Assembly: GCA_046082485.1 (NCBI GenBank)
Contig: JBJTXX010000467.1
Span: forward strand, 1 to 49,246
Source: Actinomycetota bacterium
GTDB lineage: Bacteria; Actinomycetota; Acidimicrobiia; Acidimicrobiales; Ilumatobacteraceae
Reading direction: 5' to 3'
DNA length: 49,246 bases
A program made the translations under genes and the position numbers. Numbering within the stretch: the stretch's first letter is position 1; each line of letters starts with the position of its first letter. Of this stretch, positions 6,652 through 34,580 are shown piece by piece. The notes beneath the pieces are model-generated. The model worked only from the letters and a program-made list of their open reading frames with translations. It was not told the origin of the DNA and made no database searches.

Positions 6652-7590
6652 TCAGCGCCGGTCGGCCGAGGGTTCGGTCGGTGGCGTGCTGCGCTCGAAC
6701 GCCGCCTCGACCTCGCTGAACGACAGGGGCTCCTCGTCGTGACCGACGATCTCTGCGGTGGGAATGCGTCGATCGCGGCGATAGGTGCGCTCGGACGCGA
6801 CGGAACCGAAACGCTTGAAGAACATGTAGATCACGATGCCCCAGAGGAAGAAGCCACCGGCGATCTTCATGATCGCCCCGGCGAGCTGCTGGTCGTCAGC
6901 CGGCGAGAGACCCCACACCCTCACGGGCTGCTCGCCGTAATGGCGGTAGACGGCTCCGTCCGCGAACGTCAGCCAGGCCGCGGGCACGGTGGGCACGACG
7001 CTCTGCAGGAACAGGTAGATCATCTTGCCGCCTGCCGAGATCTGCAGTTCGGGCAGTGGGCCCACCACCGGCATCCACATCAGCGTGGCGGCGAGCACGA
7101 CGAACAGGTGCAGGCCGAAGTGCAGCGCACCGTTCGTGGTCGAGGCGTTCACCACACCCGGAACGTGGAGGATCATCACCATGACGTTGAAGATCACGCC
7201 GGCCACGACGGCCCTCGCGAAGAACCGCACCACACGGTAGGTGCGGCCCGCGCCGATCAACGTGCGCAGCAACCACTCCGGCGTGGCCATCAGCGCCAGC
7301 GGCGGGAAGAAGTAGCTGAGCATCATGTGCTGCACCATGTGCACGCTGTAGAGGTAGCCCTCGGCGATCTGGTGCACCGGCCACGTACTGGCGACGAACA
7401 GCACCACCATCGCCGCGACGAAACAGGTCACCTGCCGACGGGTCACCACCGGTTGGCCCGCCTGCACCACACCCGGCCCGATGTTGCGCACCATGTAGAC
7501 GTACGCGCCCACGAGGAACGCCACCAGCACGTACACCTCGGGGTTCGACTCGAACCTCCAGGGGTCCGCGAACGCTGCCGCGGCAGTCAT
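6652..7590 (-). CDS. ctaG: Cytochrome c oxidase assembly factor CtaG (caa3/Bacillus type membrane protein)
   Basis: 312-aa polytopic membrane protein immediately downstream of ctaF on the same strand. Blocks such as VHMVQHMML, MWMPVVGP and YLFLQSVVPTVPAAWL resemble the Caa3_CtaG family. Confidence 0.7.
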   Translation of the reverse strand: MTAAAAFADPWRFESNPEVYVLVAFLVGAYVYMVRNIGPGVVQAGQPVVTRRQVTCFVAAMVVLFVASTWPVHQIAEGYLYSVHMVQHMMLSYFFPPLALMATPEWLLRTLIGAGRTYRVVRFFARAVVAGVIFNVMVMILHVPGVVNASTTNGALHFGLHLFVVLAATLMWMPVVGPLPELQISAGGKMIYLFLQSVVPTVPAAWLTFADGAVYRHYGEQPVRVWGLSPADDQQLAGAIMKIAGGFFLWGIVIYMFFKRFGSVASERTYRRDRRIPTAEIVGHDEEPLSFSEVEAAFERSTPPTEPSADRR

Positions 7591-7597
7591 GATCGAC

Positions 7598-7921
7598 CTA
7601 GTTCTTGAAGAACTGGAAGGTGAAGAGGAACGCGATGTAGACGAGGACGGCCAGCACCAGGCCCGCGTAGAACATCAGGCTGAACACCTTGCTGTCGAAC
7701 TTCAGGTGCATGAACACCGACACGATCATGAAGAACTTGATCGCCATCATGATGAGCAGGGCCACCATGCCGACGGTCTCGAGGCTCTTGGGCCACCAGT
7801 AGGTGGAGGTCTCGAGCGCCGTCACCACTGCGAGGATGATCGCGATCTTGATGAAGTAGCGGTCGGACGGTGTGTGGTGCTCGTCGGCAGCGTGCGCTGC
7901 GTGCTCTGTTGTGGCGCTCAT
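7598..7921 (-). CDS. ctaF: Cytochrome c oxidase subunit IV (prokaryotic COX4_pro type)
   Basis: 107 aa with 3 TM helices. The sequence KIAIILAVVTALE...MAIKFFMIVSVFMHLKFD is characteristic of the small subunit IV of Bacillus-type aa3/caa3 and quinol oxidases. It lies 10 nt downstream of ctaE. Confidence 0.75.
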   Translation of the reverse strand: MSATTEHAAHAADEHHTPSDRYFIKIAIILAVVTALETSTYWWPKSLETVGMVALLIMMAIKFFMIVSVFMHLKFDSKVFSLMFYAGLVLAVLVYIAFLFTFQFFKN

Positions 7922-7931
7922 GCGGGTGACC

Positions 7932-8588
7932 TCAGACCGGGATCAGGTAGACGAGGGTGAAGATGACGACCCAGACGACGTCGACGAAGTGCCAGTAGAG
8001 GCCGACGAGTTCGACCACCTCTGCTCGATCGCCGGTGATGCGGTCACGGGTGATGATGCCGACCAGCACCAGCAGCATGATGATGCCGAGCGACACGTGC
8101 ACACCGTGGAAACCGGTGAGGGTGTAGAAGCTCGAGCCGAAGAGGCTGGTGGTGTAGCCCAGACCCTCCTGGTAGAAGGCCGTGAACTCGTAGACCTGAC
8201 CACCCACGAAGAGCGCACCGAGTGCGGCGGTGATGGTGAGCCACAGGTTGGTGTTGCGCTGGTCGTTGCGCTTCGCCGAGTTCACCGCGAGCACCATCGT
8301 CAGCGAACTCATCAGCAGGATGAAGCTGCTGACCGACGTGAGCGGGATGTCGAAGATCTGGTTCGGGCCGGGGCCACCTTCGCTGCGACCGCGGTACAGC
8401 ATGTAGGTGGAGATCAGGCCACCGAACAGCAGGCACTCGCTGCCGAGGAACAGCCACATGCCGAGCTTGTTGTTGCTCAGCCCGGTGCTGGTGACGTGGG
8501 CGCCGTGGCCCGAGTCGTGTGATGCGTGGTCCACGTCGTGGACAGCGATGTCAGCCAAGGGTCGCCAACTCCTTCGAGGGTTCGCCAC
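7932..8588 (-). CDS. ctaE: Cytochrome c oxidase subunit III (short 5-TM type)
   Basis: Contains GMWLFLGSECLLFGG, TGFHGVHVSLG and GLYWHFVDVVWVVIF. The annotated ATG gives a 38-nt overlap with ctaD. An internal GTG at 8534 would remove the overlap, so the start is uncertain. Confidence 0.9.
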   Translation of the reverse strand: MANPRRSWRPLADIAVHDVDHASHDSGHGAHVTSTGLSNNKLGMWLFLGSECLLFGGLISTYMLYRGRSEGGPGPNQIFDIPLTSVSSFILLMSSLTMVLAVNSAKRNDQRNTNLWLTITAALGALFVGGQVYEFTAFYQEGLGYTTSLFGSSFYTLTGFHGVHVSLGIIMLLVLVGIITRDRITGDRAEVVELVGLYWHFVDVVWVVIFTLVYLIPV

Positions 8589-10566
8589 CGGCCGGCGGCT
8601 CGTAATCGGTGTCGTCGGCGACCGAGGGCTCGAGGCACCAGCCGAAGATCGACAGCAGCAGCACCGCCAGACCGACGAAGCACAGCAACAGGTTGAAGAT
8701 CACGCCGTAGGCGATGATCGGCAACGACAGGGCCATCACGATCGGCCAGTACGACGGCGACGGCAGGTGGATGTGGTGATCCGCGTTCGCCTCTTCCTCG
8801 GCGAGGATCTCCTCGGCCGTGCGCACCTTCACCAGCTTGGCGCCGTCGGGCGTGTCCTGCTCCTCGTACTTCCGGTGGAAGAACTCGTCGAGGGCGTGCA
8901 CCGTCGGGATGCGGTCGAAGTTGTGCTCCTTCGGCGGACTCGCCGTGATCCACTCCAGGGTGCGGGCATCCCACGGGTCGAGCGGGGCGGCCGGCGCCTT
9001 CTTCGACGTGTGGAAGATGTTGATCACGAACAGCAGCACGCCGAGGGCGATCACGAAACTGCCGACACTCGCGACACGGTTCCAGAACGCGATGTCGAAG
9101 AAGCCCTCACCCGTGATCTTGTCCGGCCACACCACCATGCGGCGGGGCTGGCCCTGCAGACCGAGGATATGCATCGGGGCGAAGGTGAGGTTGATGCCGA
9201 AGAACATCAGCCAGAAGTTCCACTTGCCCAGCCGCTCGCTCAGCATCTTGCCGAACATCTTCGGCCACCAGAAGTAGAAGCCGGCGAACAGGCCCATCAC
9301 CGCACCACCCACGATCACGTAGTGGAAGTGGGCGACGATGTGGTACGTGTCGGTCTGCTGCGTGTCGCTGGGCGCCACGGCGTGGGTGACGCCCGAGAGA
9401 CCACCGATGGTGAACAGCACGATCACGCCGATCGAGAACATCATCGCGACGCTGTACTGCAGCTTGCCGCCCCACAGGGTGAGCGTCCAGTTGCAGATCT
9501 TCACGCCGGTGGGAATGGCGATCAGCATGGTCGCCACCGAGAACACCGCCACGCTGACGGGCCCTAGGCCGCTGGCGAACATGTGGTGGGCCCATACGCC
9601 CCAGCCGACGAAGCCGATCGCCGCACCCGAGAAGACCACGAACTTGTAGCCGAACAGCGGCTTGTGGGCGAACGTGGGAAGCACCTCGGAGATGATGCCG
9701 AAGCTCGGCAGGACGATGATGTACACCTCGGGGTGGCCGAAGATCCAGAACAGGTGCTGCCACAGCAGGGGGTCTGCGCCGGCGTTCACGTCGAAGAACG
9801 TGGCACCGAAGTTGCGCTGGAAGCTGAGCAGGAAGAGCGCCACGGTGATCACGGGCATGGCGAACAGCAGCAGGAACTGCACCACCAGCACCATCCAGGT
9901 GAACACCGGCATGTCCATCAACTTCATGCCCGGTGCACGCATGTTCAGCACCGTCACGATGAGGTTGATGGCACCGACGAGTGAGGCGATACCGGTGATC
10001 TGCAGGCCGAGCACCCAGAAGTCGATGCCGTGCGAGGGCGAGAACAGGGCGCTGCTGTTCGGGGAGTACATAAACCAGCCGCCGTCGGCCGCGCCGCCGA
10101 GGAACCACGAGGTGTTCAGGAAGATGCCGCCGAAGAGGAACAGCCAGAAGCCCAGCGCGTTGATGCGCGGGAAGGCCACGTCACGGGCGCCGACCTGCAG
10201 GGGCAGGAAGTAGTTGGCGAACGCAGCGGCCATCGGCATCACGAAGAGGAACACCATCGTCGTGGCGTGCATCGTGAACATCTCGTTGTAGAGCCCAGCG
10301 CTGAGCACCGTGTTGTCGGGGGCTGCGAGCTGCAGACGGATCAGCAGCGCCTCGATACCGCCCACCAGGAAGAAGAACAGCGCCACGGCGCCGTACATCA
10401 GGCCCAGCTTCTTGTGGTCGACGGTGAACAGCCAGCTCTTCCAGCCGGTGCTGGCGACTGGCCGACGCAGCACGCCGAGAGCCCGCGGCGTGGTGACCAC
10501 AGCGGGGGCCGAGGCACCGGCACCGACGGTGGCCGGGACTGCTGAGGGTCGTTCGATGATTGCCAT
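8551..10566 (-). CDS. ctaD: Cytochrome c oxidase subunit I (A-type heme-copper oxidase) with about 115-aa two-helix C-terminal extension
   Basis: All canonical ligand blocks are present: FTMHATTMVF (helix II His), WQHLFWIFGHPEVY (CuB His plus Tyr), WAHHMF (two CuB His) and VAHFHYV (heme a3/heme a His). Also has TVDHKKLG and DPWDARTLEW. Confidence 0.95.
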   Translation of the reverse strand: MAIIERPSAVPATVGAGASAPAVVTTPRALGVLRRPVASTGWKSWLFTVDHKKLGLMYGAVALFFFLVGGIEALLIRLQLAAPDNTVLSAGLYNEMFTMHATTMVFLFVMPMAAAFANYFLPLQVGARDVAFPRINALGFWLFLFGGIFLNTSWFLGGAADGGWFMYSPNSSALFSPSHGIDFWVLGLQITGIASLVGAINLIVTVLNMRAPGMKLMDMPVFTWMVLVVQFLLLFAMPVITVALFLLSFQRNFGATFFDVNAGADPLLWQHLFWIFGHPEVYIIVLPSFGIISEVLPTFAHKPLFGYKFVVFSGAAIGFVGWGVWAHHMFASGLGPVSVAVFSVATMLIAIPTGVKICNWTLTLWGGKLQYSVAMMFSIGVIVLFTIGGLSGVTHAVAPSDTQQTDTYHIVAHFHYVIVGGAVMGLFAGFYFWWPKMFGKMLSERLGKWNFWLMFFGINLTFAPMHILGLQGQPRRMVVWPDKITGEGFFDIAFWNRVASVGSFVIALGVLLFVINIFHTSKKAPAAPLDPWDARTLEWITASPPKEHNFDRIPTVHALDEFFHRKYEEQDTPDGAKLVKVRTAEEILAEEEANADHHIHLPSPSYWPIVMALSLPIIAYGVIFNLLLCFVGLAVLLLSIFGWCLEPSVADDTDYEPPAGGEPSKELATLG

Positions 10567-10578
10567 CGGTGGGCTCCC

Positions 10579-11817
10579 TTACTTCCGCTCGAGGAGGTAG
10601 GCGATGAGTTGGTCGATCTGATCCTCCTTGAGGTTCAGATTCGGCATGCCACGGTACTTGCCGCCCGTGGACTCGAGATTCTTGGGGTCGGCGAACATCG
10701 GCTTCATCGCCGGTGAGTTGCGCAGCCACTCACGAAGCTTCGACTCGTCGAAGCAGTCGGGCGTGACACCCTTCAGGTACATGGCACCGAACTTGTCGGG
10801 CGCGGCGTTCCACAGCGCATCACGACACTCCTCGTTGATGAGGTCGAACGTCCAGCCGGCGATGGCCGTACGGGTCATCAGGTTGGTGAGGTTCGGCGCC
10901 ACGCCCGACACGACGTAGAGGTCGGGGTCGGAGAGCACCGGGCTGCCGTCGGCGTTCTCGATGCCGTTCACCTGGTGGCACTTGCTGCAGTTCGCGATGA
11001 AGGTTCCCTCACCGGCGAGCGCCAGTTCGTCGGTCGGTGCCGCGTAAGGCTGCAGCTGGTTGTCGACCCACGCCTGGAAGTCGGCGGTGTCGAGGGCAAC
11101 GGCGGCCTGCCGCATACGGGCGTGGCTGAGGCCGCAGAACTCCGTGCACTGGCCCATGTAGAGGCCGGGCTCGTCGGCCTGCAGGCGCAGAGAGTGCAGG
11201 CGACCGGGCACCGCGTCGCGCTTGCCGTTGAGGGCGGGAATCCAGAAACTGTGGATCACGTCACGGCTGGTGATGCGCAGGATCACGGGAGTGTTGGTCG
11301 GAATCACCAACTCGCCGCTCGTGACGATCGGCTCGGGGATCTTCACGCCGCCGCACTCGCCGGTGGCGTAGTCCATCTCCCACCACCACTGCTGGCCGGT
11401 GACGTTGATCACGCATTCGGTGTCGGTCTTCTTGTCGAGTTCGAAGACGGTGATCACGGTGGGCACCGAGACACCCGCGAGGATCACTGCCGGCAGCACC
11501 GTCAGGAAGATCTCCAGCTTCGGGTTGCCGTGGGTCTGCTCGGGGATGTCCTGGCCGCGGTCCTTGAACTTCCAGAGGGTGTAGGCGACCGCCGCCAGCA
11601 CGATCACGCCCACCACACCGGCGATGTAGAACACCGGCCGCTGCAGGTTGTCGATCTTCGTTGCGTTCGGGCCCCTGGGCTCGAAGATGTCCTGCGGCGC
11701 GTTCTCGGCGCAGGCGGCAAGCACCGCCGCCACGACCGCCGCCACCATCAGGTGGGGACGGCGCCGGGGGGTGCGTATCTCGCCGTGGTTGCTCATGCTG
11801 TGTTCGCTCCGGTCCAT
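10579..11817 (-). CDS. ctaC: Cytochrome c oxidase subunit II with fused C-terminal cytochrome c domain (caa3 type)
   Basis: CuA site HSFWIPALNGK...CTEFCGLSHARM. Heme c site CSKCH with a distal RGMPNL. Two N-terminal TM helices. Start at ATG 11817 (MDRSEHSMSNH), with an alternative ATG at 11796. The 713-aa ORF upstream of this is an antisense/readthrough artefact. Confidence 0.9.
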   Translation of the reverse strand: MDRSEHSMSNHGEIRTPRRRPHLMVAAVVAAVLAACAENAPQDIFEPRGPNATKIDNLQRPVFYIAGVVGVIVLAAVAYTLWKFKDRGQDIPEQTHGNPKLEIFLTVLPAVILAGVSVPTVITVFELDKKTDTECVINVTGQQWWWEMDYATGECGGVKIPEPIVTSGELVIPTNTPVILRITSRDVIHSFWIPALNGKRDAVPGRLHSLRLQADEPGLYMGQCTEFCGLSHARMRQAAVALDTADFQAWVDNQLQPYAAPTDELALAGEGTFIANCSKCHQVNGIENADGSPVLSDPDLYVVSGVAPNLTNLMTRTAIAGWTFDLINEECRDALWNAAPDKFGAMYLKGVTPDCFDESKLREWLRNSPAMKPMFADPKNLESTGGKYRGMPNLNLKEDQIDQLIAYLLERK

Positions 11818-11819
11818 GA

Positions 11820-12968
11820 TCAGGGCACCACCACTTTGATCTCTTGCTCTTCGACCTCGGGCACCGTCAGGCGGAACGGGGTCGTGCTGGCGGCCTGGGA
11901 CTTGCTGATGCGGAAGGTCAGGAACGCCTTGCCGCCCTTCTCGATCGTCGTGGTGCAGTCTGCCTGCTCGGTTCCCTCGGTGCCATCCGTGGCCTTGAAT
12001 GTGCCCAAATGCACAGTCAGGCGGCGGGCTTCCTCGGTGCGGTTGGTGAACAGCACGTGCACGTCGGTCGAGCGCGGCACGTAGATCTCGTGGTACTCGA
12101 CGTTCGGGATCGCCGTGTTGAAGGCCACCAGCCGGTTGTCGTCGGTGAGGACGACGTTGGCGATGACATTGCTCTTCGCGGACACGCTCTGCGAGGCCTT
12201 GTGGTCGACCTCCTCGATCTCGGACTCGGGCGCCTGACCGAGGCACACCGCGGCGCTGATGTGCGCGTGCTCCTCGATGGTGCGCTGACCCGACACCGCC
12301 GAGGCGACACCGACACCCAGCATCGCCAGCAGGCCGACGGCGCTGATGCCGCCGATCGTCGTCTTCGACAGACCGCGACGGGCGGCGATCATGAAACCGA
12401 CCACCACGATGACGGCGCCGAGCAGGATGAAGGCCCAACGACCGGCGTCCTTGCTGATGGTGAGCATCAGCCGCGAGAAGCCGTAGAGCATGGCGCCGAG
12501 CACGACGGTGGCGAGCACCGGGAACTCGAGTGGATGCATGAGGCGCTTGCGCAGGCCGTCGTTGAAGGCCGCGTCGCCACTGGCGCGCTGGGCCCAGGTC
12601 TCGACCATCCACTCGACGATGGCAGCGATCAGCACCACCACGGCGACCTTGAACACCACCGGCTTGCTGACCGCGCCGACGGCCAGGCCGGCGACACTCA
12701 CCGCCGAGACCAGCGGCCACAGGCTGCGACCGACGGGCCCGCGGCCCGCAGCGCTCTGCGAAACCGCAGCTTCGTCCATGGGCGGAACGTTGCAGTCGCG
12801 AACGTAGATGTTGATGCCGGCGAGGAAGGCGAAGACAACGCCGACCGACACGAGGCCGATGGTGCCCAGCAGGCCCGTGGGCCCGCCGTTGGACATCCCG
12901 AACAGCAGCGCGCCCACGAACGAGAGCACCGTGCCGCCGAGGAACAGCTTTGAACCAGTGGTGAACAT
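11820..12968 (-). CDS. Polytopic membrane protein (about 7 TM) with beta-rich extracytoplasmic C-terminal domain; function unknown
   Basis: 382-aa ORF with high GC3. Its stop is 2 nt before the ctaC start, and its start is 10 nt after the stop of the subunit III paralogue. It has seven hydrophobic segments followed by about 150 aa of alternating beta-like sequence (VHVLFTNRTEEARRLTVHLGTF...FLTFRISKS...FRLTVPEVEEQEIKVVVP). Confidence 0.7.
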   Translation of the reverse strand: MFTTGSKLFLGGTVLSFVGALLFGMSNGGPTGLLGTIGLVSVGVVFAFLAGINIYVRDCNVPPMDEAAVSQSAAGRGPVGRSLWPLVSAVSVAGLAVGAVSKPVVFKVAVVVLIAAIVEWMVETWAQRASGDAAFNDGLRKRLMHPLEFPVLATVVLGAMLYGFSRLMLTISKDAGRWAFILLGAVIVVVGFMIAARRGLSKTTIGGISAVGLLAMLGVGVASAVSGQRTIEEHAHISAAVCLGQAPESEIEEVDHKASQSVSAKSNVIANVVLTDDNRLVAFNTAIPNVEYHEIYVPRSTDVHVLFTNRTEEARRLTVHLGTFKATDGTEGTEQADCTTTIEKGGKAFLTFRISKSQAASTTPFRLTVPEVEEQEIKVVVP

Positions 12969-12978
12969 CGGCTCCCCG

Positions 12979-13560
12979 TTACTTCGTCACGTAAACCACG
13001 AACCACACCAGTGCGAAGATCGCACTGAAGCAGTACCAATACAGGGCGTGCGCCGCCACGACCTCGCGGTCGGTGTCACGGCCGCTGAGATAGCGGAACG
13101 CAGTGATGGCGCTGAAGAGCACGCCGACGATCATGAGGGCGGCGGTCACCCCGGTGACGGCGTAGAACATGATCTGGTAAGTGCCGCCGTTGGCAGCGAG
13201 GCCCATCTGACCCCAGATGTAGGCCTGGGCGTTGATGAGCGCCACACCCAGCACCAGCACGAGGAACAGTGCCGTGCCCGTGTGCGGGCGGTCATCGCGC
13301 TTGGCCGAGTACACCGCCCACTGGGCGAAGATGCACAACGGCAGCAACGCGATCAGCATGACGTTCGCCGGCACGAGCGGCACGTTGGTGCCCTTGGGCA
13401 CCCAAGCACCGTCGGGGCCGTTCAGGCCCGCCTCGCGGAAACGCAGGAACAGGGCGAGCATGCCGCCGATCAGTGCCACCGCAGCGGCGCAGGCGAGCGC
13501 GGCGCCCACCAGCAACTGGCGGCGCGGCTCGGGGGCAGGGGCCGGGGGAAGTGCGAGCAT
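12979..13560 (-). CDS. Divergent heme-copper oxidase subunit III family paralogue
   Basis: 193 aa with 5 TM. The C-terminal HALYWYCFSAIFALVWFVVY parallels the canonical LYWHFVDVVWVVIF of ctaE in this window. The start ATG overlaps the stop of the upstream subunit I paralogue (ATGA at 13558-13562). Confidence 0.7.
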   Translation of the reverse strand: MLALPPAPAPEPRRQLLVGAALACAAAVALIGGMLALFLRFREAGLNGPDGAWVPKGTNVPLVPANVMLIALLPLCIFAQWAVYSAKRDDRPHTGTALFLVLVLGVALINAQAYIWGQMGLAANGGTYQIMFYAVTGVTAALMIVGVLFSAITAFRYLSGRDTDREVVAAHALYWYCFSAIFALVWFVVYVTK

Positions 13561-15212
13561 CAGGCCTCACTCCGGTTCGAGGGCTTCAGGTCGAGCAGGG
13601 GCTCTGCCGACTTCACCACGTGGATGTCGACGAAGTTGTGCTCCGGCGCAGGCGAGGTGGTGGCCCACTCGAGCGTCTGGCCGTTCCACGGGTCGTCACC
13701 GGCGCGCTCGCCCTTGGCGGCCGAGCGCCACTCGAGGGCGACGAATGCCAGCACCGTCAGCAGCACCAGCAGGTGACCGATGCCGCTGAGGGCGTTCCAC
13801 AGGCCCGACGGGCCGGAGTACGAGAAGTTCGTGGGGCCGGGCAGGCCGGCCTCCACGGCGGGCAGGGCCTCACCGGGCTGATCGGCGAAACCGGCGATCA
13901 TCATCGGCAGGCTCGCCAACACGCCACCGAGGAACCCCAGCAGGCCCAGCGGCAGCGTCGCCTTCATCGGCATCACCCGGCCGCTCCACTTCGGCATCCA
14001 GTGCGCCACGGCACCGAGACCGGCGAGCACCGAGCCATAGACGACCGCCAACCATGCGCCTTCCTCGAAGGTCGTGCCGACGAGGCCGGCATCACCGACG
14101 TGGTTCAGCACTCCCGCAGCGGCACCGAGCAGCACCAGCAGGGCGCCGTGCAGGGCGAACACGAGCGGGGCCCCGATCGCAGGCTTGCTGCGAAGGGCGC
14201 CTGCGGTGAGCGCCACCGAACCGAGCACACCCAGCAGCGGCAACAGGTGCACGAGAGCGAACGGCACGAGGTCGGACACCTTCTGTCCTGCGGTGAGACC
14301 CGAGAACCCGGCACGCAACAGCACCGGTGCCTGCACCGCAGCGGCGAACATCGCCGTGCCGACCAGACCGATGGCGCCGAGCAGCACCCCGCGGGGCCGC
14401 AGGCGTGTGTTGGTCGCCGTGGCCACCACGTCGGCGAGGAAGCCGAGCGCAGGGAGGGCGAAGACCAGTGTGGTCGGCTGCGTCAGACCGAAGCCCACCC
14501 AGCGGCCGAGCGCCCGGTTCCCGCTCAGTTCGCTGACGCTCGGGTAGCGGTGGGCGAGATACACGTAGAGCAGATCGCCGATCACGATCGGCAGCACGAC
14601 CAGCAGTGCCAGCGACGACACCAGCACCGCCCACGAGAACCAAGGGATGCGACGCATGTTCATGCCGGGCGCACGGGTCGTGAGCACCGTGGCCGCGAGC
14701 GAGACGGCCGTGGCCACGAGGCCGAGCGCCACGAGGCCGAACGACAGGGTGAACAGGTCGACGAACCGGCGGTTGCCACCGTTCGGGCCGCCGTTCGCAG
14801 CGATCGCAATCACGGCGAGCACGGCGCCGATCGCCCAGGTCCAGAAGCCAGCCGCAGCCACCCTCGGGAAGGCGTTCGAACGGGCGCCCACCTGCAGCGG
14901 GACCACCACGAGTGCGATGCCCACCAGCAACGGCAGCGCCACCAGGAAGGTGAGGCCGAAGCGGTACAGCGAGAACAGCTGGGTGATCGACTCGACGGGC
15001 AGCAGCTCGCTGCCCGAATCGGCGCGCTCGAATGCCAGCAGGGCGCCCACCACCACGGCGCCGAGCAGCGCCAACGTCGCCAGACTCATGAACAGCCGGC
15101 CGATCTTCTTGTGGTCGGTGGAGGTGATCCAGTCAGCCACGGTCGCAAGTCCGCCACCTGCGGAGGTGGCGGGTGCGTGGGTGTCGACGGTTGTCATGGG
15201 CAACGGACTCAT
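13560..15212 (-). CDS. Heme-copper oxidase subunit I-like paralogue lacking the canonical heme/CuB histidine ligands
   Basis: Retains the superfamily blocks STDHKKIG, PLQVGARSNAFPR, TRAPGMNMRRIPWFSW, HWMPKW and DPWNGQTLEWATTSPAPEHNF. It has no His between DHKKIG and AFPR, no GHPEVY, no HH and no HFH block. The start is ambiguous: ATG at 15212 (MSPLPM...) or 15197 (MTTVDT...). Confidence 0.8.
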   Translation of the reverse strand: MSPLPMTTVDTHAPATSAGGGLATVADWITSTDHKKIGRLFMSLATLALLGAVVVGALLAFERADSGSELLPVESITQLFSLYRFGLTFLVALPLLVGIALVVVPLQVGARSNAFPRVAAAGFWTWAIGAVLAVIAIAANGGPNGGNRRFVDLFTLSFGLVALGLVATAVSLAATVLTTRAPGMNMRRIPWFSWAVLVSSLALLVVLPIVIGDLLYVYLAHRYPSVSELSGNRALGRWVGFGLTQPTTLVFALPALGFLADVVATATNTRLRPRGVLLGAIGLVGTAMFAAAVQAPVLLRAGFSGLTAGQKVSDLVPFALVHLLPLLGVLGSVALTAGALRSKPAIGAPLVFALHGALLVLLGAAAGVLNHVGDAGLVGTTFEEGAWLAVVYGSVLAGLGAVAHWMPKWSGRVMPMKATLPLGLLGFLGGVLASLPMMIAGFADQPGEALPAVEAGLPGPTNFSYSGPSGLWNALSGIGHLLVLLTVLAFVALEWRSAAKGERAGDDPWNGQTLEWATTSPAPEHNFVDIHVVKSAEPLLDLKPSNRSEA

Positions 15213-15310
15213 TTCGTCTCGGGCGCGCGCATGGCGGGACCCACAGATCACAGGTCAGGTGGAGTTACAGGTGCGACATTACCCACAGCCATGGTGCGGA
15301 GAGGAAATTC

Positions 15311-16258
15311 TCAGACACCGTGACGCACGAGCACGTCGACGGTCATCGCCGTGAAGAGCAGCGTCACGTACGTGATCGAGTAGCCGAAGACCCGCATCGA
15401 CCTTTGCGGCGTGGGGTTCCGGCCGAGGTCGATGGTGCCCCACAGGAACAGTGCGCCGAGCACGACGGCCGAGATGCCGTACACCGGACCGAGCGACGCG
15501 ACCGGCCACAGCACCAGCGTGCCGGCCACCATGACAGCGGTGTAGAGCACCATCTTGCGCACCGTCACCTCGAGGGTGCTGACGGCCGGCAGCATCGGCA
15601 CGCTGGCCGCCCGGTAGTCGTCGGCGTAGCGGATGGCCAGTGCCCAGAAGTGCGGAGGGGTCCAGAGGAACATCACGACGAACAGCACGACCGGAGTCCA
15701 CGTCACGTCGTTGCGCACCGCCGCCCAGCCCACCAGCACCGGCACTGCGCCTGCGGCACCTCCGATGACGATGTTCTGGGTGCTCGTGCGCTTGAGCCAG
15801 AGCGTGTAGACGAAGACGTAGAACAGCATCGCGGAGAGCGCCAGCACGGCCGACAGCAGGTTCGCCCACTTCCAGAGCACGCCGAATGCGACGACCTCGA
15901 GCAGGATCGCGAAGACCAACGCCTCGCGCGGCCCCACGAGGCCGGTCACGAGGGGGCGGCCCTGGGTGCGCGGCATCAGGCTGTCGATGTCTCTGTCGAC
16001 CACCATGTTGATGGCGTTCGCGCCGCCGGCGGCCAGCGTGCCGCCCACGAGGGTCACGATCAGCAGGCTCCACGACGGCCAACCCCGTTCGGCCAACACC
16101 ATCGTGGGTACGGTGGTGATGAGCAGCAGTTCGATGATGCGCGGCTTTGTGAGCGCAACGAAACCGCCGATGCGGGTGCTCGGGGTGCGGCGACCGCCGT
16201 GCACCACGCCACCGGGTGCGAGCCGCGAAGGCACGATGGGGCGGGCGCCGACAGCCAT
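15311..16258 (-). CDS. ctaB: Protoheme IX farnesyltransferase (heme O synthase)
   Basis: UbiA-family motifs are present: ALTKPRIIELLL, GGANAINMVVDRDID and WTPPHFWALA. I chose the start at the internal ATG 16258 (MAVGARP...), because the upstream 40 codons are Arg/Pro-rich. Confidence 0.9.
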   Translation of the reverse strand: MAVGARPIVPSRLAPGGVVHGGRRTPSTRIGGFVALTKPRIIELLLITTVPTMVLAERGWPSWSLLIVTLVGGTLAAGGANAINMVVDRDIDSLMPRTQGRPLVTGLVGPREALVFAILLEVVAFGVLWKWANLLSAVLALSAMLFYVFVYTLWLKRTSTQNIVIGGAAGAVPVLVGWAAVRNDVTWTPVVLFVVMFLWTPPHFWALAIRYADDYRAASVPMLPAVSTLEVTVRKMVLYTAVMVAGTLVLWPVASLGPVYGISAVVLGALFLWGTIDLGRNPTPQRSMRVFGYSITYVTLLFTAMTVDVLVRHGV

Positions 16259-16377
16259 GGGGTCATCGTAGGGTGCCGATGCGGACGGCACCACTTCGCC
16301 ACGCGCTGCCTGCGTCGGGGGACGAGAGTCACATCGGTTCCGTGCTCGCGGCGGCAGCGGGCGACGGCGACGGCACA

Positions 16378-16683
16378 ATGGGGCACATGCCCACGGTGCT
16401 GGAACCGGTTCGAACCGAACAACCCGACGCCGACACCACCACCGTTCCCGACCGCCCGTGGCTGGTGCTGGTGTGGAACGACCCGATCAACCTGATGAGC
16501 TACGTCACCCTGGTGCTGCAGAAGGTGTTCGGCTACAGCCGTGAGAAGGCGACGTCGCTGATGCTCGACGTGCACCACAGGGGTCGGGCCGTGGTCAGCA
16601 GCGGCACCCGCGAGAAGGCCGAGATCGACGTGTTCAGGCTGCACGAGCACGGGTTGTGGGCCACGATGCAACAGGACGACTGA
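16378..16683 (+). CDS. clpS: ATP-dependent Clp protease adaptor ClpS
   Basis: 101 aa. PWLVLVWNDPINLMSYVTLVLQKVFGYSREKATSLMLDVHHRGRAVV is the ClpS core. An alternative ATG lies 9 nt downstream. Confidence 0.9.
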   Translation: MGHMPTVLEPVRTEQPDADTTTVPDRPWLVLVWNDPINLMSYVTLVLQKVFGYSREKATSLMLDVHHRGRAVVSSGTREKAEIDVFRLHEHGLWATMQQDD

Positions 16684-16749: not shown

Positions 16750-17448
16750 TCAGACGCTGACGGTCTCGCGGTGGTGCTCGACGGCCAGCACCACGTCGTC
16801 GGCCTTCTTGGAGGCGAAGGCGTGGATGAAGCCGGCAAGCGACAGGGCGAACAGCACGATGGCGGCGATGATCGTCACCCACGCGGCCTGACCGGCGCGC
16901 TCGCCGAAGATGCTGAACCCGTAGGTGGTCAGCAGCAGACCGCGGAGTGTCTCACCGGTCTGCAGCGTGCCCCGCAGGCCCTTGGCGCCGTCGAGTGCCT
17001 TCTGCGCCTCGTCGATCTTGGCCTGGTCGCCCGATTCCTGGGCGGCGGTCAGGGCATCGACCAGCGAGACCTCGGTGCCGGGACGCACGTAGGCGCCCAT
17101 CGTGGCGTAGGTGGCGCCCTCGTAACCGGCGGCCTTCGCTGACTCCTCCATGTGGAGGGCGATGTACGAGCTGGCATAGCACTCGGCCTTCTTGCCCGAG
17201 TCGAGCACCTGACCCTTCGTGGCATCGCCGACGGTGGTGCCGTACTCGACGAGGCAGGGGGCAGCCTTCTCCTCGTCGGACAGGAACTTGGCCGGCGTGA
17301 AGTTGATCTTCTGCGCGGTCAGTTCGGTGCGGACGTAGTTGTCCGCGAAGCTCTTCTGGTTGTTCAGGATCAGGCCGACGACGAGCAGCAGCACGCTGAA
17401 GACCACGCCGCCGATGCTGAACGCCACGTCGAGAGTGCGACGCTTCAT
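16750..17448 (-). CDS. Two-TM membrane protein with about 170-aa extracytoplasmic domain; function unknown
   Basis: ATG at 17448 is preceded by a strong SD (GGAGGAAACACA-ATG on the minus strand). The N-terminal TM is VAFSIGGVVFSVLLLVVGLIL and the C-terminal TM is AAWVTIIAAIVLFALSLAGFI. The loop contains two Cys. Confidence 0.7.
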   Translation of the reverse strand: MKRRTLDVAFSIGGVVFSVLLLVVGLILNNQKSFADNYVRTELTAQKINFTPAKFLSDEEKAAPCLVEYGTTVGDATKGQVLDSGKKAECYASSYIALHMEESAKAAGYEGATYATMGAYVRPGTEVSLVDALTAAQESGDQAKIDEAQKALDGAKGLRGTLQTGETLRGLLLTTYGFSIFGERAGQAAWVTIIAAIVLFALSLAGFIHAFASKKADDVVLAVEHHRETVSV

Positions 17449-17683
17449 TGTGTGTTTCCTCCTTGCGACCGTCGGGGACTCGGGCCGCTGGAGCCATCCT
17501 CGTCGTCGAAACGGCACCGGCGACAGGGACCCACAGCCCCTCCTGTTCGGGACTTTGGGCCGCGCGACGTCGACGACGGCCGCAAACGTGCCGCTGAGCA
17601 GGGGTGATACACATCAAGACAGCATCAACCGGTGGTGCCGACGGGAGGATCGAAAGCACTCTCCGTGAGTATTGCGGCGTATA

Positions 17684-17712
17684 TTGACACCGAGAGTGTT
17701 CACGGGTACCGT
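17684..17712 (+). promoter_or_regulatory. Candidate housekeeping-sigma promoter for the FtsH-like gene
   Basis: TTGACA at 17684-17689, a 17-nt spacer, then TACCGT (TAnnnT) at 17707-17712. A GGAGG SD lies 6 nt before the ATG at 17740. This is a pattern match only. Confidence 0.3.
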
Positions 17713-17739
17713 GCCCTCCAGCAACCCCGGAGGCACACC

Positions 17740-19479
<1,740 letters not shown>

Positions 19480-19497: not shown

Positions 19498-20256
19498 GTG
19501 AGCCTGTTCCGCCGACGGCGACAGCGGCCCGTGCCCGACGAGCGCATCGCGCACGCGGTGCCACGATGGACACCCTCGTGGGGTGCCCTCACACCCGACG
19601 AGCGAGACGTGCTGGTGCAGTACTCGGCGGCCCTGGCCGACGGCTTCCGCTGGGAGGCCGCTCGCGGCTTCCGTCTCACCGACGAGGTCCGGGTGGCCAT
19701 CGGAGCCCAGGCGGCGCTGCTGCTGCTCGGACTCGACGACGGCCTCGACAACTACGAGCAGGTCACCTCGGTGATCGTGCACGCCACCACCATCGTGCGG
19801 ACCGGCGAGCACGCATGGGGCGACGGACTCGTCGCCGAGGGCGACGACCCGTTGATCGGTGAGGCCATCCATCGAGGCCCCGTCGTGCTGGCGTGGGACG
19901 CCGTGGTGCAGCAGGCGCTGCAGCCCCAACGGGGCGAGAACGTGGTGCTGCACGAGTTCGCGCACCGACTCGACATGCTCGACGGTCTCAGCGACGGCAC
20001 GCCGCCCCTGGCCGATGCGGGCGAACTCGCCCGATGGGTCACCACGTGCCGGGCAACGCTGGAGCGTCTGCGTGCCCACACCGCACCGTCGGTGCTGCGT
20101 GCCTACGCCGAGACGAACCCGGCCGAGTTCTTCGCGGTCGCCACCGAGGTGTTCTTCACCCGGCCGGTGGCTCTGCGCGAGGAAGACCCCTCGCTCTACG
20201 ACGTGCTGCGCTCGTACTACGGGCAGGACCCTGCCACCCGACTGCAGTTCACCTGA
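19498..20256 (+). CDS. MtfA-like zinc peptidase (M90 family)
   Basis: GTG start 18 nt after the FtsH-like stop. Has an HEFAH zinc motif followed by AETNPAEFFAVATEVFF, matching the M90/MtfA pattern. Confidence 0.7.
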   Translation: MSLFRRRRQRPVPDERIAHAVPRWTPSWGALTPDERDVLVQYSAALADGFRWEAARGFRLTDEVRVAIGAQAALLLLGLDDGLDNYEQVTSVIVHATTIVRTGEHAWGDGLVAEGDDPLIGEAIHRGPVVLAWDAVVQQALQPQRGENVVLHEFAHRLDMLDGLSDGTPPLADAGELARWVTTCRATLERLRAHTAPSVLRAYAETNPAEFFAVATEVFFTRPVALREEDPSLYDVLRSYYGQDPATRLQFT

Positions 20257-34300: not shown

Positions 34301-34376
34301 TGGTGGTCGAGACCGGCGTCGATCCGGTGACCCTACGCTTTTCAGGCGTATGCTCTGCCGACTGAGCTACTCGACC
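34301..34376 (-). tRNA. tRNA-Phe (anticodon GAA), CCA encoded
   Basis: The reverse complement is GGTCGAGTAGCTCAGTCGGCAGAGCATACGCCTGAAAAGCGTAGGGTCACCGGATCGACGCCGGTCTCGACCACCA. The acceptor stem is GGTCGAG/CTCGACC, the anticodon stem TACGC/GCGTA and the loop CTGAAAA. Confidence 0.95.
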
Positions 34377-34396
34377 CGAACGGGGTTGCCCCCGAG

Positions 34397-34470
34397 CGGT
34401 CCCGACGGGACTCGAACCCGCGACCTCCGGCTTGACAGGCCGGCGTGAACTCCAACTTCACCACGGGACC
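34397..34470 (-). tRNA. tRNA-Asp (anticodon GTC)
   Basis: The reverse complement is GGTCCCGTGGTGAAGTTGGAGTTCACGCCGGCCTGTCAAGCCGGAGGTCGCGGGTTCGAGTCCCGTCGGGACCG. The anticodon stem is CCGGC/GCCGG and the loop CTGTCAA. CCA is not encoded. Confidence 0.95.
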
Positions 34471-34507
34471 AGGCTGTTTCCAGGCTGATCTGAATTGCAC
34501 TTCCTTG

Positions 34508-34580
34508 CACCCCCAACGGGATTCGAACCCGTGTCGCCACCTTGAAAGGGTGGTGTCCTCGGCCACTAGACGATGGGGGC
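34508..34580 (-). tRNA. tRNA-Glu (anticodon TTC)
   Basis: The reverse complement is GCCCCCATCGTCTAGTGGCCGAGGACACCACCCTTTCAAGGTGGCGACACGGGTTCGAATCCCGTTGGGGGTG. The anticodon stem is CCACC/GGTGG and the loop CTTTCAA. CCA is not encoded. Confidence 0.95.

Follow-up and report, generated by a model that had tools for sequence, protein, structure and literature searches.

Few membrane enzymes have been studied as well as the heme-copper oxidases. The A-family caa3/aa3 core of these oxidases is represented by the actinobacterial aa3 of the bcc-aa3 supercomplex (PDB 6ADQ, 6HWH, and 7Q21) and by Thermus caa3 (2YEV). This article describes three actinobacterial genes whose products, called I', III', and X, resemble parts of that core. 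I' can be aligned over its full length with the catalytic subunit CtaD, III' corresponds to a subunit III with five transmembrane helices (TM), and the N-terminus of X weakly resembles the actinobacterial subunit IV (PF12270). Unlike the core, the module has no ligands for heme a, heme a3, or CuB, no tyrosine cross-link, no D or K channel, and no heme-propionate arginines, and the cupredoxin-like domain of X is without a CuA site.

The only precedent found is a relic in Acetobacter. There, a "deranged" COX1-like protein without metal ligands is encoded beside ctaB (Matsutani et al. 2014, BBA 1837:1810, as described in PMC10715153 by Degli Esposti et al. 2023), and it is regarded as structural (PMC10715153). 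By description, the likeness is that of a ligand-less subunit I homolog adjoining the heme O synthase gene. The relic, as described there, is one gene in an alphaproteobacterium that has lost cytochrome c oxidase, whereas here three paralogous subunits and a complete caa3 share an operon, across the class Acidimicrobiia and under purifying selection. An Acetobacter-type relic was considered for the module and rejected: adjacency to ctaB and ligand loss fit, but the same operon encodes a complete caa3.

NifEN is an example of a pseudoenzyme paralog, serving as scaffold or partner for nitrogenase. The general concept is that an active enzyme may have a pseudoenzyme paralog as its scaffold or partner (PMC11266112). 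The module is similar in being a dead paralog that is selected and, putatively, co-expressed with the active enzyme. It differs in that the duplication took in an entire membrane complex of several subunits, whose copy is now devoid of cofactors, and in that its interaction with a partner is presumed.

Organization of the Locus

The window, a stretch of 49,246 nucleotides from a bacterium of the Ilumatobacteraceae, class Acidimicrobiia (assembly GCA_046082485.1, contig JBJTXX010000467.1), carries nine tightly packed genes on its minus strand. The initial annotation gave their order as ctaB, I', III', X, and ctaC-D-E-F-G, and these identities are borne out by Pfam and NCBIfam, X alone having no family above cut-off.

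15311..16258, minus strand: ctaB, heme O synthase, 315 aa (NCBIfam NF003349, 393 bits, and Pfam UbiA)
15276..15310, minus strand: promoter-like element in the ctaB-I' spacer, conserved across aligned spacers
13560..15197, minus strand: I', subunit I-like, 545 aa, without heme or copper ligands (Pfam COX1)
12979..13560, minus strand: III', subunit III-like, 193 aa, 5 TM (Pfam COX3)
11820..12968, minus strand: X, 382 aa, 7 TM and a predicted extracytoplasmic cupredoxin-fold domain (AF2, Foldseek)
10579..11817, minus strand: ctaC, subunit II, CuA and fused cytochrome c domain (Pfam COX2, COX2_TM, and Cytochrom_C; TIGR02866, 194 bits)
8551..10566, minus strand: ctaD, catalytic subunit I, 671 aa (Pfam COX1, 510 bits)
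7932..8558, minus strand: ctaE, subunit III, TTG start (Pfam COX3, 78.6 bits)
7598..7921, minus strand: ctaF, Bacillus-type subunit IV, 107 aa (Pfam COX4_pro, 29.5 bits)
6652..7590, minus strand: ctaG, Caa3_CtaG assembly factor (Pfam PF09678, 146 bits)

From I' to ctaG the junctions are spaced by -8 to 12 nt. I' starts at ATG 15197 (MTTVD..., 545 aa), matching all homologs, and the ctaB-I' spacer is therefore 113 nt long, not roughly 98 nt as first estimated. The ctaB start that gives 315 aa is the same as in the ortholog at locus L082. I' and III' had been described as joined by ATGA coupling at 13558-13562; the actual sequence is TGATG, with an overlap of 1 nt. The 10-nt gap reported between III' and X (12969-12978) agrees with the junction sequence. 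The 2-nt gap between X and ctaC (11818-11819) is right provided that ctaC uses its first ATG. An alternative start lies at 11796, and gene callers place the ctaC start of relatives at an ATG 21 nt downstream in two cases and about 2 nt past the X stop in a third. A 12-nt gap separates ctaC from ctaD, and ctaD overlaps ctaE by 8 nt, the TTG start of ctaE at 8558 being set by the starts called in orthologs and by the sequence at the junction.

The ctaB-I' spacer contains the element GA(A/T)TTTC(C/G) - ~21 nt - TA(A/G)T(G/C)T. Its core bases are invariant in 24 of 24 aligned spacers, despite I' identity down to 38%, and a similar element can be found in L086 and L089. The element was not flagged in a sigma-70 consensus scan and has no match in Rfam. 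It is a putative promoter, and the probable first gene of the transcription unit in the window's subfamily is I', not ctaB. Because the genes from I' to ctaG are tightly coupled and the promoter-like element lies upstream of I', the three extra genes would head the structural operon. This suggests that their expression is comparable to that of the enzyme subunits, and not in trace amounts, operon position being a weak proxy for stoichiometry.

The oxidase beside the module is complete, as had been claimed. The motifs CTEFCGLSHARM for CuA and CSKCH for heme c are in the CtaC translation, and all ligands are present in CtaD. CtaD also carries a fused, subunit IV-like C-terminal extension of two TM, with a PF12270 match at residues 587-646.

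The Subunit I-Like Protein

I' is a full-length homolog of COX1 (PF00115, E 2.2e-31, 109.6 bits against a cut-off of 34.8, 407 of 436 model positions). Its profile matches CtaD in the PDB with an E-value of 3e-48, the top hits being CtaD chains from mycobacteria and corynebacteria. Identity to the adjacent CtaD is 25%, and NCBIfam scores fall far under the equivalog cut-offs (175 vs 671). The two proteins have structural loops and the C-terminal segment DPW..TLEW..SP..NF in common. The C-terminal 2-TM extension of CtaD is absent from I'.

The description of this protein as ligand-less holds. All six metal-binding histidines (two for the low-spin heme, one for the high-spin heme, and three for CuB) are gone from the window's I' and kept in the neighbouring CtaD. 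None of 21 I' family members compared has the full ligand set, and a few have a stray histidine at one site. The cross-linked tyrosine, Y288, is Leu in the window's I'; across the family the position is mostly Phe, Leu, Ile, or Val, with Tyr still found in 3 of 21. Substitutions have likewise removed the residues of the D and K channels and the pair of heme-propionate arginines (E286 to T/A, D132 to S/A, N139 to A, K362 to P, and R481/R482 to G/A). In the adjacent CtaD, all ligands, Y288, the channel residues, and R481/R482 are kept in 15 of 15 sequences. A role of I' as a catalytic oxidase subunit is ruled out by the loss of ligands, tyrosine, channels, and propionate arginines.

The family has conserved features of its own. 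Polar residues in or near the helices are FEE 382-384 (helix 10), ER 62-63, and QP 245-246, numbered on the 550-aa translation from 15212 (minus 5 for the 545-aa protein), and an NGGPxGGN outer loop is also conserved.

Genes of the I' type are now annotated as "cbb3-type cytochrome c oxidase subunit I".

The Subunit III-Like Protein and X

III' matches Pfam COX3 (PF00510) with 34.3 bits, above the cut-off of 23.8, and NCBIfam aa3_CtaE_Actin with E 2.7e-10 and 40.8 bits, under the cut-off of 190; it is therefore a divergent COX3 member. It is 27% identical to the window's CtaE (BLASTP E 2e-12).

X had been described as a 7-TM protein with a beta-domain, and seven helices and a beta-sandwich were indeed found. 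The AF2 model of residues 145-382 has a pLDDT of 82.5, with values above 90 in the cupredoxin-fold domain itself (about residues 260-382). In a Foldseek search of the PDB, the best 50 matches are all cupredoxin-type, with probability 1.0; they include blue copper proteins, multicopper oxidases, and related domains (EfeO, SufI), and there are no COX2 chains among these 50. Aligned with hhalign, X gives a probability below 1% both against the family's CtaC and against 54 diverse CtaC. The CuA motif H...CxExCxxxHxxM was not found in X, nor was any copper-ligand motif. Two cysteines are invariant in X, and C242 and C338 are the only conserved candidate ligand residues of the domain. The positive-inside rule and the two invariant cysteines lead us to infer an N-in/C-out topology, in which the domain lies on the outer side of the membrane. 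Only the window's subfamily has this domain; X of other Acidimicrobiales is without it.

The N-terminus of X weakly resembles the actinobacterial subunit IV, CtaF. Residues 6-124 match positions 5-126 of 132 of the PF12270 model at 20.4 bits, weaker than the cut-off of 26.9, and 12 of 30 X family members have a PF12270 match (best E 2e-4). Residues 77-122 can be aligned with the PF12270-like C-terminal extension of CtaD (hhalign probability 83%, E 9e-6). A PDB profile search with X found nothing.

Distribution and Graded Loss of Ligands

The I'-III'-X module is class-wide in Acidimicrobiia. The exact gene order, ctaB-I'-III'-X-ctaC-D-E-F-G, is present in every related contig that is long enough, in 22 species-level genomes and 9 further contigs (loci L001-L022, L081-L084, and L085-L089), and no contig breaks it. 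Thus, when relatives were checked for synteny, the module was neither absent nor scattered, and in the loci examined it always accompanied the caa3 operon. Within L001-L022, I' is as little as about 38% identical, and L085-L089 come from clusters that diverge further still. Named members all belong to Acidimicrobiia except for two labels of metagenome-assembled genomes (MAGs), which are taken to be binning or naming errors. More than 1,000 proteins belong to the I' family, which forms at least about 125 clusters when grouped at 50% identity. A check for an already characterised subunit set gave no match in databases or in the literature, where no description of the I'-III'-X module was found either.

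I', III', and X are real proteins under selection. Their dN/dS values are 0.12, 0.18, and 0.16, similar to that of ctaC (0.11). The earlier view that these are not decaying pseudogenes is upheld by the intact reading frames, the purifying selection (dN/dS 0.12-0.18), and the fixed synteny, and the comparison supports a retained, presumably co-expressed paralogous set beside a complete caa3.

Ligand loss differs among relatives. The bis-His low-spin heme site is kept in 88 of 134 distant relatives sampled, and in the window's subfamily 110 of 119 members have no histidine at any of the six positions. Judged from these sequences, the ligand-less state in the window is the end of a graded series of losses. 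The module and its synteny are present both in relatives that keep the heme site and in the window's subfamily; since the module persists with and without the low-spin heme site, its function must be heme-independent.

Possible Functions

Our favoured reading, held with somewhat less than even confidence, is that I'-III'-X forms a catalytically dead, oxidase-shaped subcomplex that stays permanently associated with the active caa3 in a structural role. I' would provide a core of twelve helices without hemes, CuB, or proton channels, and III' would dock on it as CtaE does on CtaD. X would give in trans the subunit IV-like hairpin that CtaD carries fused; since I' is without the 2-TM extension and X 77-122 is homologous to it, these pieces would complement each other. 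In the window's subfamily, X would also contribute an outward-facing cupredoxin-like domain that has no copper. The assembly would be co-transcribed and co-translated with CtaCDEF, and may serve as a "dummy protomer" or a supercomplex adaptor with no redox chemistry of its own. Binding among the three proteins, binding to caa3, and the structural role are what we infer. In favour of this reading are the resemblance of each protein to an oxidase subunit, the limitation of what I' shares with CtaD to structural elements, the purifying selection, the invariant gene order, the tight gene coupling with the promoter-like element ahead of I', and the persistence of the module with and without the low-spin heme site. 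The low-spin ligands kept in many lineages count against a structural reading, as the ancestral function could have been in redox or heme handling.

The main rival, which we consider rather unlikely, is that I'-III'-X mimics a nascent oxidase core and acts as a biogenesis scaffold outside the mature enzyme, either stabilising CtaB (and CtaA) or holding CtaD during insertion of heme a and CuB. I' lies directly downstream of ctaB at every locus; in distant lineages the ctaB-I' gap shrinks to 16-22 nt, with ctaA divergent just upstream, and the operon carries further assembly genes, ctaB and ctaG. The ligand-less COX1-like protein beside ctaB in Acetobacter is proposed to be a CtaB stabiliser (PMC10715153). 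The ctaB/ctaA adjacency and this precedent fit a scaffold as well as they fit a structural partner, and the bis-His site of most distant relatives sampled could be a holding site for heme a. However, the window's subfamily keeps the module without a conserved heme ligand, and its promoter-like element divides ctaB from I'. Moreover, three large membrane proteins (about 1,120 aa together), coupled to the structural genes at the 5' end of the operon, would be an expensive sub-stoichiometric chaperone.

The oxidase fold might instead have been adapted to conduct ions or protons or to work as a transporter, in a protein set that is merely co-regulated with respiration. Such an independent membrane function would account for the conserved FEE, ER, and QP residues and NGGPxGGN loop of I' and for the conserved extracytoplasmic domain of X, but it is improbable: I' has lost the gating Glu along with the D/K-channel residues and the heme-propionate arginines, no transporter-like signature was found, and in the loci examined the module never stands apart from the caa3 operon. 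That the genes are relics of a duplicated ancestral aa3 oxidase, in decay and still intact by chance, is hardly credible. The three genes do evolve faster than their canonical counterparts (I' has 38-62% identity across loci where CtaD is 70-87% identical), and the ligands were lost stepwise, but selection at dN/dS 0.12-0.18, intact frames and fixed order in more than 30 contigs across the class, and a family of at least about 125 clusters (50% identity) with invariant motifs of its own all argue against decay.

Significance

The standard classifier of heme-copper oxidases explicitly dropped sequences without six histidines (PMC3084760), and because such sequences are discarded the I' family went unnoticed. 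The "cbb3-type" mislabel inflates metagenomic oxidase counts and is a warning for annotation. The family also offers a natural series in which a heme-copper core tolerates stepwise cofactor loss.

The structural-partner reading can be carried further, to a version that is itself doubtful. The caa3 of Acidimicrobiia would then be an obligate hetero-assembly with I'-III'-X as a "dummy oxidase", whose core subunit lost first CuB, next heme a3, and last heme a, and kept its shape. If true, this would be the first case in which an entire respiratory enzyme was duplicated and its copy kept, free of cofactors, as a structural protomer. The idea of a dummy partner is directly testable because cultured Ilumatobacter species exist. 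I'-III'-X points to an undescribed non-catalytic partner of a real oxidase. The module probably represents a new principle in the architecture of a respiratory complex, or in how such a complex is made, and the class that carries it is abundant in water and soil.

Gene Order and Junctions

Between ctaB and ctaC, the caa3 operon of the window encodes three extra proteins: one resembling subunit I (I'), one resembling subunit III (III'), and a protein with seven transmembrane (TM) helices (X). According to the ORF listing and profile scans, nine co-directional genes are present:

15311-16258, minus strand: ctaB, heme O synthase, 393 bits
13560-15197, minus strand: I', Pfam COX1, 109.6 bits, full length
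12979-13560, minus strand: III', COX3, 34.3 bits, above cut-off
11820-12968, minus strand: X (382 aa), no family above cut-off
10579-11817, minus strand: ctaC, COX2 and cytochrome c, with CuA motif CTEFCGLSHARM and CSKCH present
8551-10566, minus strand: ctaD, COX1, 510 bits
7932-8558, minus strand: ctaE, COX3
7598-7921, minus strand: ctaF, COX4_pro
6652-7590, minus strand: ctaG, Caa3_CtaG

The junction sequences bear out the tight packing proposed in the initial annotation, including the gaps of 10 nt between III' and X and of 2 nt between X and ctaC (23 nt if an alternative ctaC start is used). A Shine-Dalgarno-like GGGGAG lies inside the III'/X gap. ctaC and ctaD are separated by 12 nt, and there is an 8-nt overlap between ctaD and ctaE. 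Two details were revised. The I'/III' junction had been read as ATGA coupling, but the actual sequence is TGATG, with one base in common. The ctaB-I' spacer, put at about 98 nt, is 113 nt long because the true I' start is the ATG at 15197; the protein begins MTTVD, has 545 residues, and starts in the same way in all homologs.

Housekeeping genes flank the operon: serS and genes for ClpS, two proteases (HtrA-like and FtsH-like), an M90 peptidase, and an ABC transporter. None of qcr, sco, and ctaA adjoins it in the window. Upstream of ctaB are ClpS (16216-16683, plus strand), a conserved hypothetical protein (16750-17517, minus strand), the FtsH-like AAA/M41 protease (17632-19479, plus strand), and the M90 peptidase (19498-20256, plus strand). 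This arrangement is kept in the close relatives L081-L083, and ctaA-ClpS-DUF2017 takes its place in more distant lineages. A cluster of three tRNAs (Phe-GAA, Asp-GTC, and Glu-TTC) lies at 34301-34580 on the minus strand.

Distribution and Selection

A database search found 608 I' homologs. The best 120 of these are 57-100% identical to I', almost all have 544-570 residues (one is a 443-residue partial), and they come from Ilumatobacteraceae or Actinomycetota MAGs. For X there are 388 homologs, every one labelled "hypothetical". Searching 1.84 billion cluster representatives with an I'-family HMM gave 396 proteins at E ≤ 1e-30. Among the best 150 of these, bit scores drop smoothly from 930 to 220 and none has all six histidines. 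The named members are Ilumatobacter sp., Ilumatobacteraceae, Acidimicrobiaceae, Acidimicrobiales, Acidimicrobiia, and "Actinomycetes" MAGs; the family reaches far beyond the lineage of the window. One MAG labelled Jiangellaceae and one locus labelled Bifidobacterium are regarded as errors of binning or naming.

Scanning species-representative genomes gave 22 family loci (L001-L022). When these were searched by tblastn with the nine window proteins, the gene order first described in the window, ctaB-I'-III'-X-ctaC-D-E-F-G, was identical wherever the contig sufficed. Across these loci identity is 38-62% for I' and 70-87% for CtaD.

Selection was estimated as dN/dS (NG86) between the window and L082, a relative with 89% identity. 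The values are 0.117 for I', 0.183 for III', and 0.164 for X, compared with 0.111 for ctaC and 0.077 for ctaB. Evolution is faster in the shadow genes than in the catalytic ones, yet purifying selection clearly acts on all three, in agreement with the earlier view that they are not decaying pseudogenes.

Ligand Loss in I'

I' aligns with the neighbouring CtaD at 25% identity (E 4e-42). Ligand positions were compared in an alignment of 21 I' orthologs and 15 adjacent CtaD proteins. All 15 CtaD have the six histidines, the cross-linked tyrosine, E286, D132/N139, K362, and R481/R482 intact. The I' of the window is replaced at every one of these, and is thus ligand-less as initially claimed; none of the 21 orthologs has the full set. 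A few members have a stray histidine at one site, and some have tyrosine at the Y288 position. Typical replacements are H102 to Y, Q, E, or F; H284 to Q; H333/H334 to A or V; H419/H421 to A or L; D132 to S or A; K362 to P; and R481/R482 to G or A. Structural loops and a C-terminal DPW..TLEW..SP..NF segment are common to I' and CtaD. Motifs specific to I' are NGGPxGGNxRF, FEE in helix 10, and a C-terminal SAEPLLDLKPSNRS tail. An R84-E383/E384 ion pair occupying the heme a pocket of I' was considered and dropped because R84 varies in divergent members.

The loss is graded across the family. A profile search seeded with distant members gave 1,042 proteins, whose histidines were counted after alignment to the canonical CtaD HMM. 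In the window subfamily, 110 of 119 proteins have no histidine at the six positions. Exactly the two axial histidines of the low-spin heme are kept in 88 of the 134 proteins sampled from distant Acidimicrobiales, one in helix 2 (FSLHAV context) and one in the AQxHYV motif of helix 10; the heme a3 histidine and all three CuB histidines are gone in the same 88. A few proteins (P0289, P0352, and P0349) keep all three heme histidines. Judging from these residues, distant I' proteins with heme histidines may be single-heme HCO-like proteins that have no binuclear centre, a distinct uncharacterised state.

Individual distant I' proteins include those of the divergent-cluster loci L085-L089 and P0269, P0427, P0420, P0481, P0289, and P0352. 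Most of the distant proteins sampled have the two low-spin heme histidines, a few have three heme histidines, and none has CuB ligands. The genes at L085-L089 are arranged as (ctaA divergent)-ctaB-I'-III'-X-ctaC-D-E-F-G as far as the contigs extend, L088 stopping just after I'.

I' might be a recent duplicate of the neighbouring ctaD. This origin was rejected, since the I' HMM scores the neighbouring CtaD no higher than CtaD from other phyla, and a rough neighbour-joining tree places I' outside a single clade that holds every canonical CtaD, those of the Acidimicrobiia operons included. Nearest to that clade are P0385 and P0352, which keep heme histidines, and the window subfamily is among the farthest. 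The tree fits progressive degeneration of I'; dating is unreliable because of long-branch effects, so that the duplication is not datable.

The Third Module Protein

AlphaFold2 predicts seven helices and a C-terminal beta domain for full-length X (pLDDT 60). For residues 145-382, modelled with 96 sequences, pLDDT is 82.5, and above 90 in the beta domain. The top Foldseek hits in the PDB are cupredoxin-type folds only (probability 1.0, target TM-score about 0.65-0.7): the Cupredoxin_1 domain 4HCF/4HCG, amicyanin, auracyanin, laccase and nitrite-reductase domains, and related cupredoxin-like proteins. No subunit II chain is among the top 50 hits. Neither an H...C...H...M nor a CuA pattern is present in the domain, whose sole standout residues are two invariant cysteines. 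A disulfide between them is probable and would agree with an extracytoplasmic location. A Cys2-His metal site (H234, C242, and C338) was rejected because H234 varies once divergent members are added, and a disulfide is likelier.

In other Acidimicrobiales, X has only 258-279 residues, with seven TM helices and an acidic tail but no cupredoxin domain. In the X-family HMM, these short proteins match positions 1-240, corresponding to the seven helices:

L085, 3665-4468: short X gene
L086, 10276-11115: short X gene
L087, 10206-11039: short X gene
L089, 10286-11062: short X gene

The cupredoxin-like domain is therefore an addition specific to the lineage of the window. Its absence from the short proteins, the generic nature of the folds matched, and a profile-profile comparison with CtaC that found nothing led to the rejection of X as a fused subunit II. 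The modelled domain is cupredoxin-fold and ligand-free, with nothing more specific retained.

The four N-terminal helices of X weakly match nearly the whole of PF12270, actinobacterial subunit IV (20.4 bits, cut-off 26.9; 12 of 30 members). The two-TM C-terminal extension of CtaD also matches PF12270, and X residues 77-122 align with it (hhalign probability 83%, E 9e-6). Since I' does not have this extension, X appears from the alignment to supply I' in trans what CtaD has in cis. The Streptomyces loci looked at for a direct subunit IV comparison had no obvious ctaF. An X profile had 0 hits against PDB sequences, and no entry in Pfam, NCBIfam, or PDB covers X.

The fused CtaD extension is encoded at 8551-8850 (CtaD residues about 587-646), and a Bacillus-type subunit IV (COX4_pro) has its own gene in the same operon. 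The caa3 enzyme thus mixes actinobacterial and Bacillus-type features.

The ctaB-I' Spacer

All 24 aligned ctaB-I' spacers contain an invariant element, GA-TTTC(C/G), about 21 nt, then TA(A/G)T(G/C)T, located at 15276-15310 (minus strand) in the window. The loci, which include L001-L022, L082, and L083, span I' identities of 38-100%. In the most divergent, the TAnTnT box is only about 10-15 nt ahead of the ATG, and similar elements occur in L086 and L089. Close relatives have a second block, CGCGCCCGAnAnGAAAnGAGTTCG, immediately 5' of the I' start codon. Together, element and block probably make up a promoter and leader. The spacing of 21 nt is unusual and suggests either a regulator site or a promoter of non-sigma-70 type; a generic sigma-70 consensus scan did not flag the element. 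A riboswitch or known RNA was rejected, as the spacer has no Rfam hit and the only Rfam matches in the window are three tRNAs. With a promoter here, the structural operon of the window subfamily would begin with I'. Some distant lineages have a gap of only 16-22 nt between ctaB and I', so ctaB is probably co-transcribed there.

Possible Functions

I', III', and X are under selection, each is homologous to an oxidase subunit, and their architectures are complementary, with no redox or proton-transfer residues. Their genes invariably lie between ctaB and ctaC and are tightly coupled to the structural ones. The three proteins would form an oxidase-shaped, cofactor-free subcomplex, which could bind active caa3 as a structural partner, either a dummy protomer or an adaptor. 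This role is proposed tentatively, because the module heads the structural operon, is large and complete, and has a function that evidently outlasts the disappearance of every heme ligand.

The main rival, a somewhat doubtful one, is a role in biogenesis, as a scaffold stabilising either CtaB/CtaA or nascent CtaD; the invariable position next to ctaB speaks for it. A precedent comes from Acetobacter, where a COX1-like protein without any of the ligands persists beside ctaB and has been proposed to stabilise CtaB (PMC10715153, citing Matsutani 2014). An independent ion-conducting role is improbable, and a mere relic is very improbable indeed.

Relation to Known Systems and Annotation

No description of the module was found in the literature searched. 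Ligand-less COX1-like relics and pseudoenzyme partners are known concepts; compared with these, the present module is unusually complete and widespread. The family has been missed so far because the HCO classifier in standard use explicitly removed any sequence lacking the six histidines (PMC3084760).

I' and III' score far under the NCBIfam equivalog cut-offs, and I' should not be annotated as a catalytic HCO subunit because it fails the defining tests of that class. Among the best 120 of the 608 homologs, labels, where given, are "cbb3-type cytochrome c oxidase subunit I" or "hypothetical". P0004, P0027, P0090, P0246, and others are publicly labelled either with the former name or as "cytochrome o ubiquinol oxidase subunit 1". 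Systematic mis-annotation of this ligand-less family would inflate oxidase counts in metagenome surveys.
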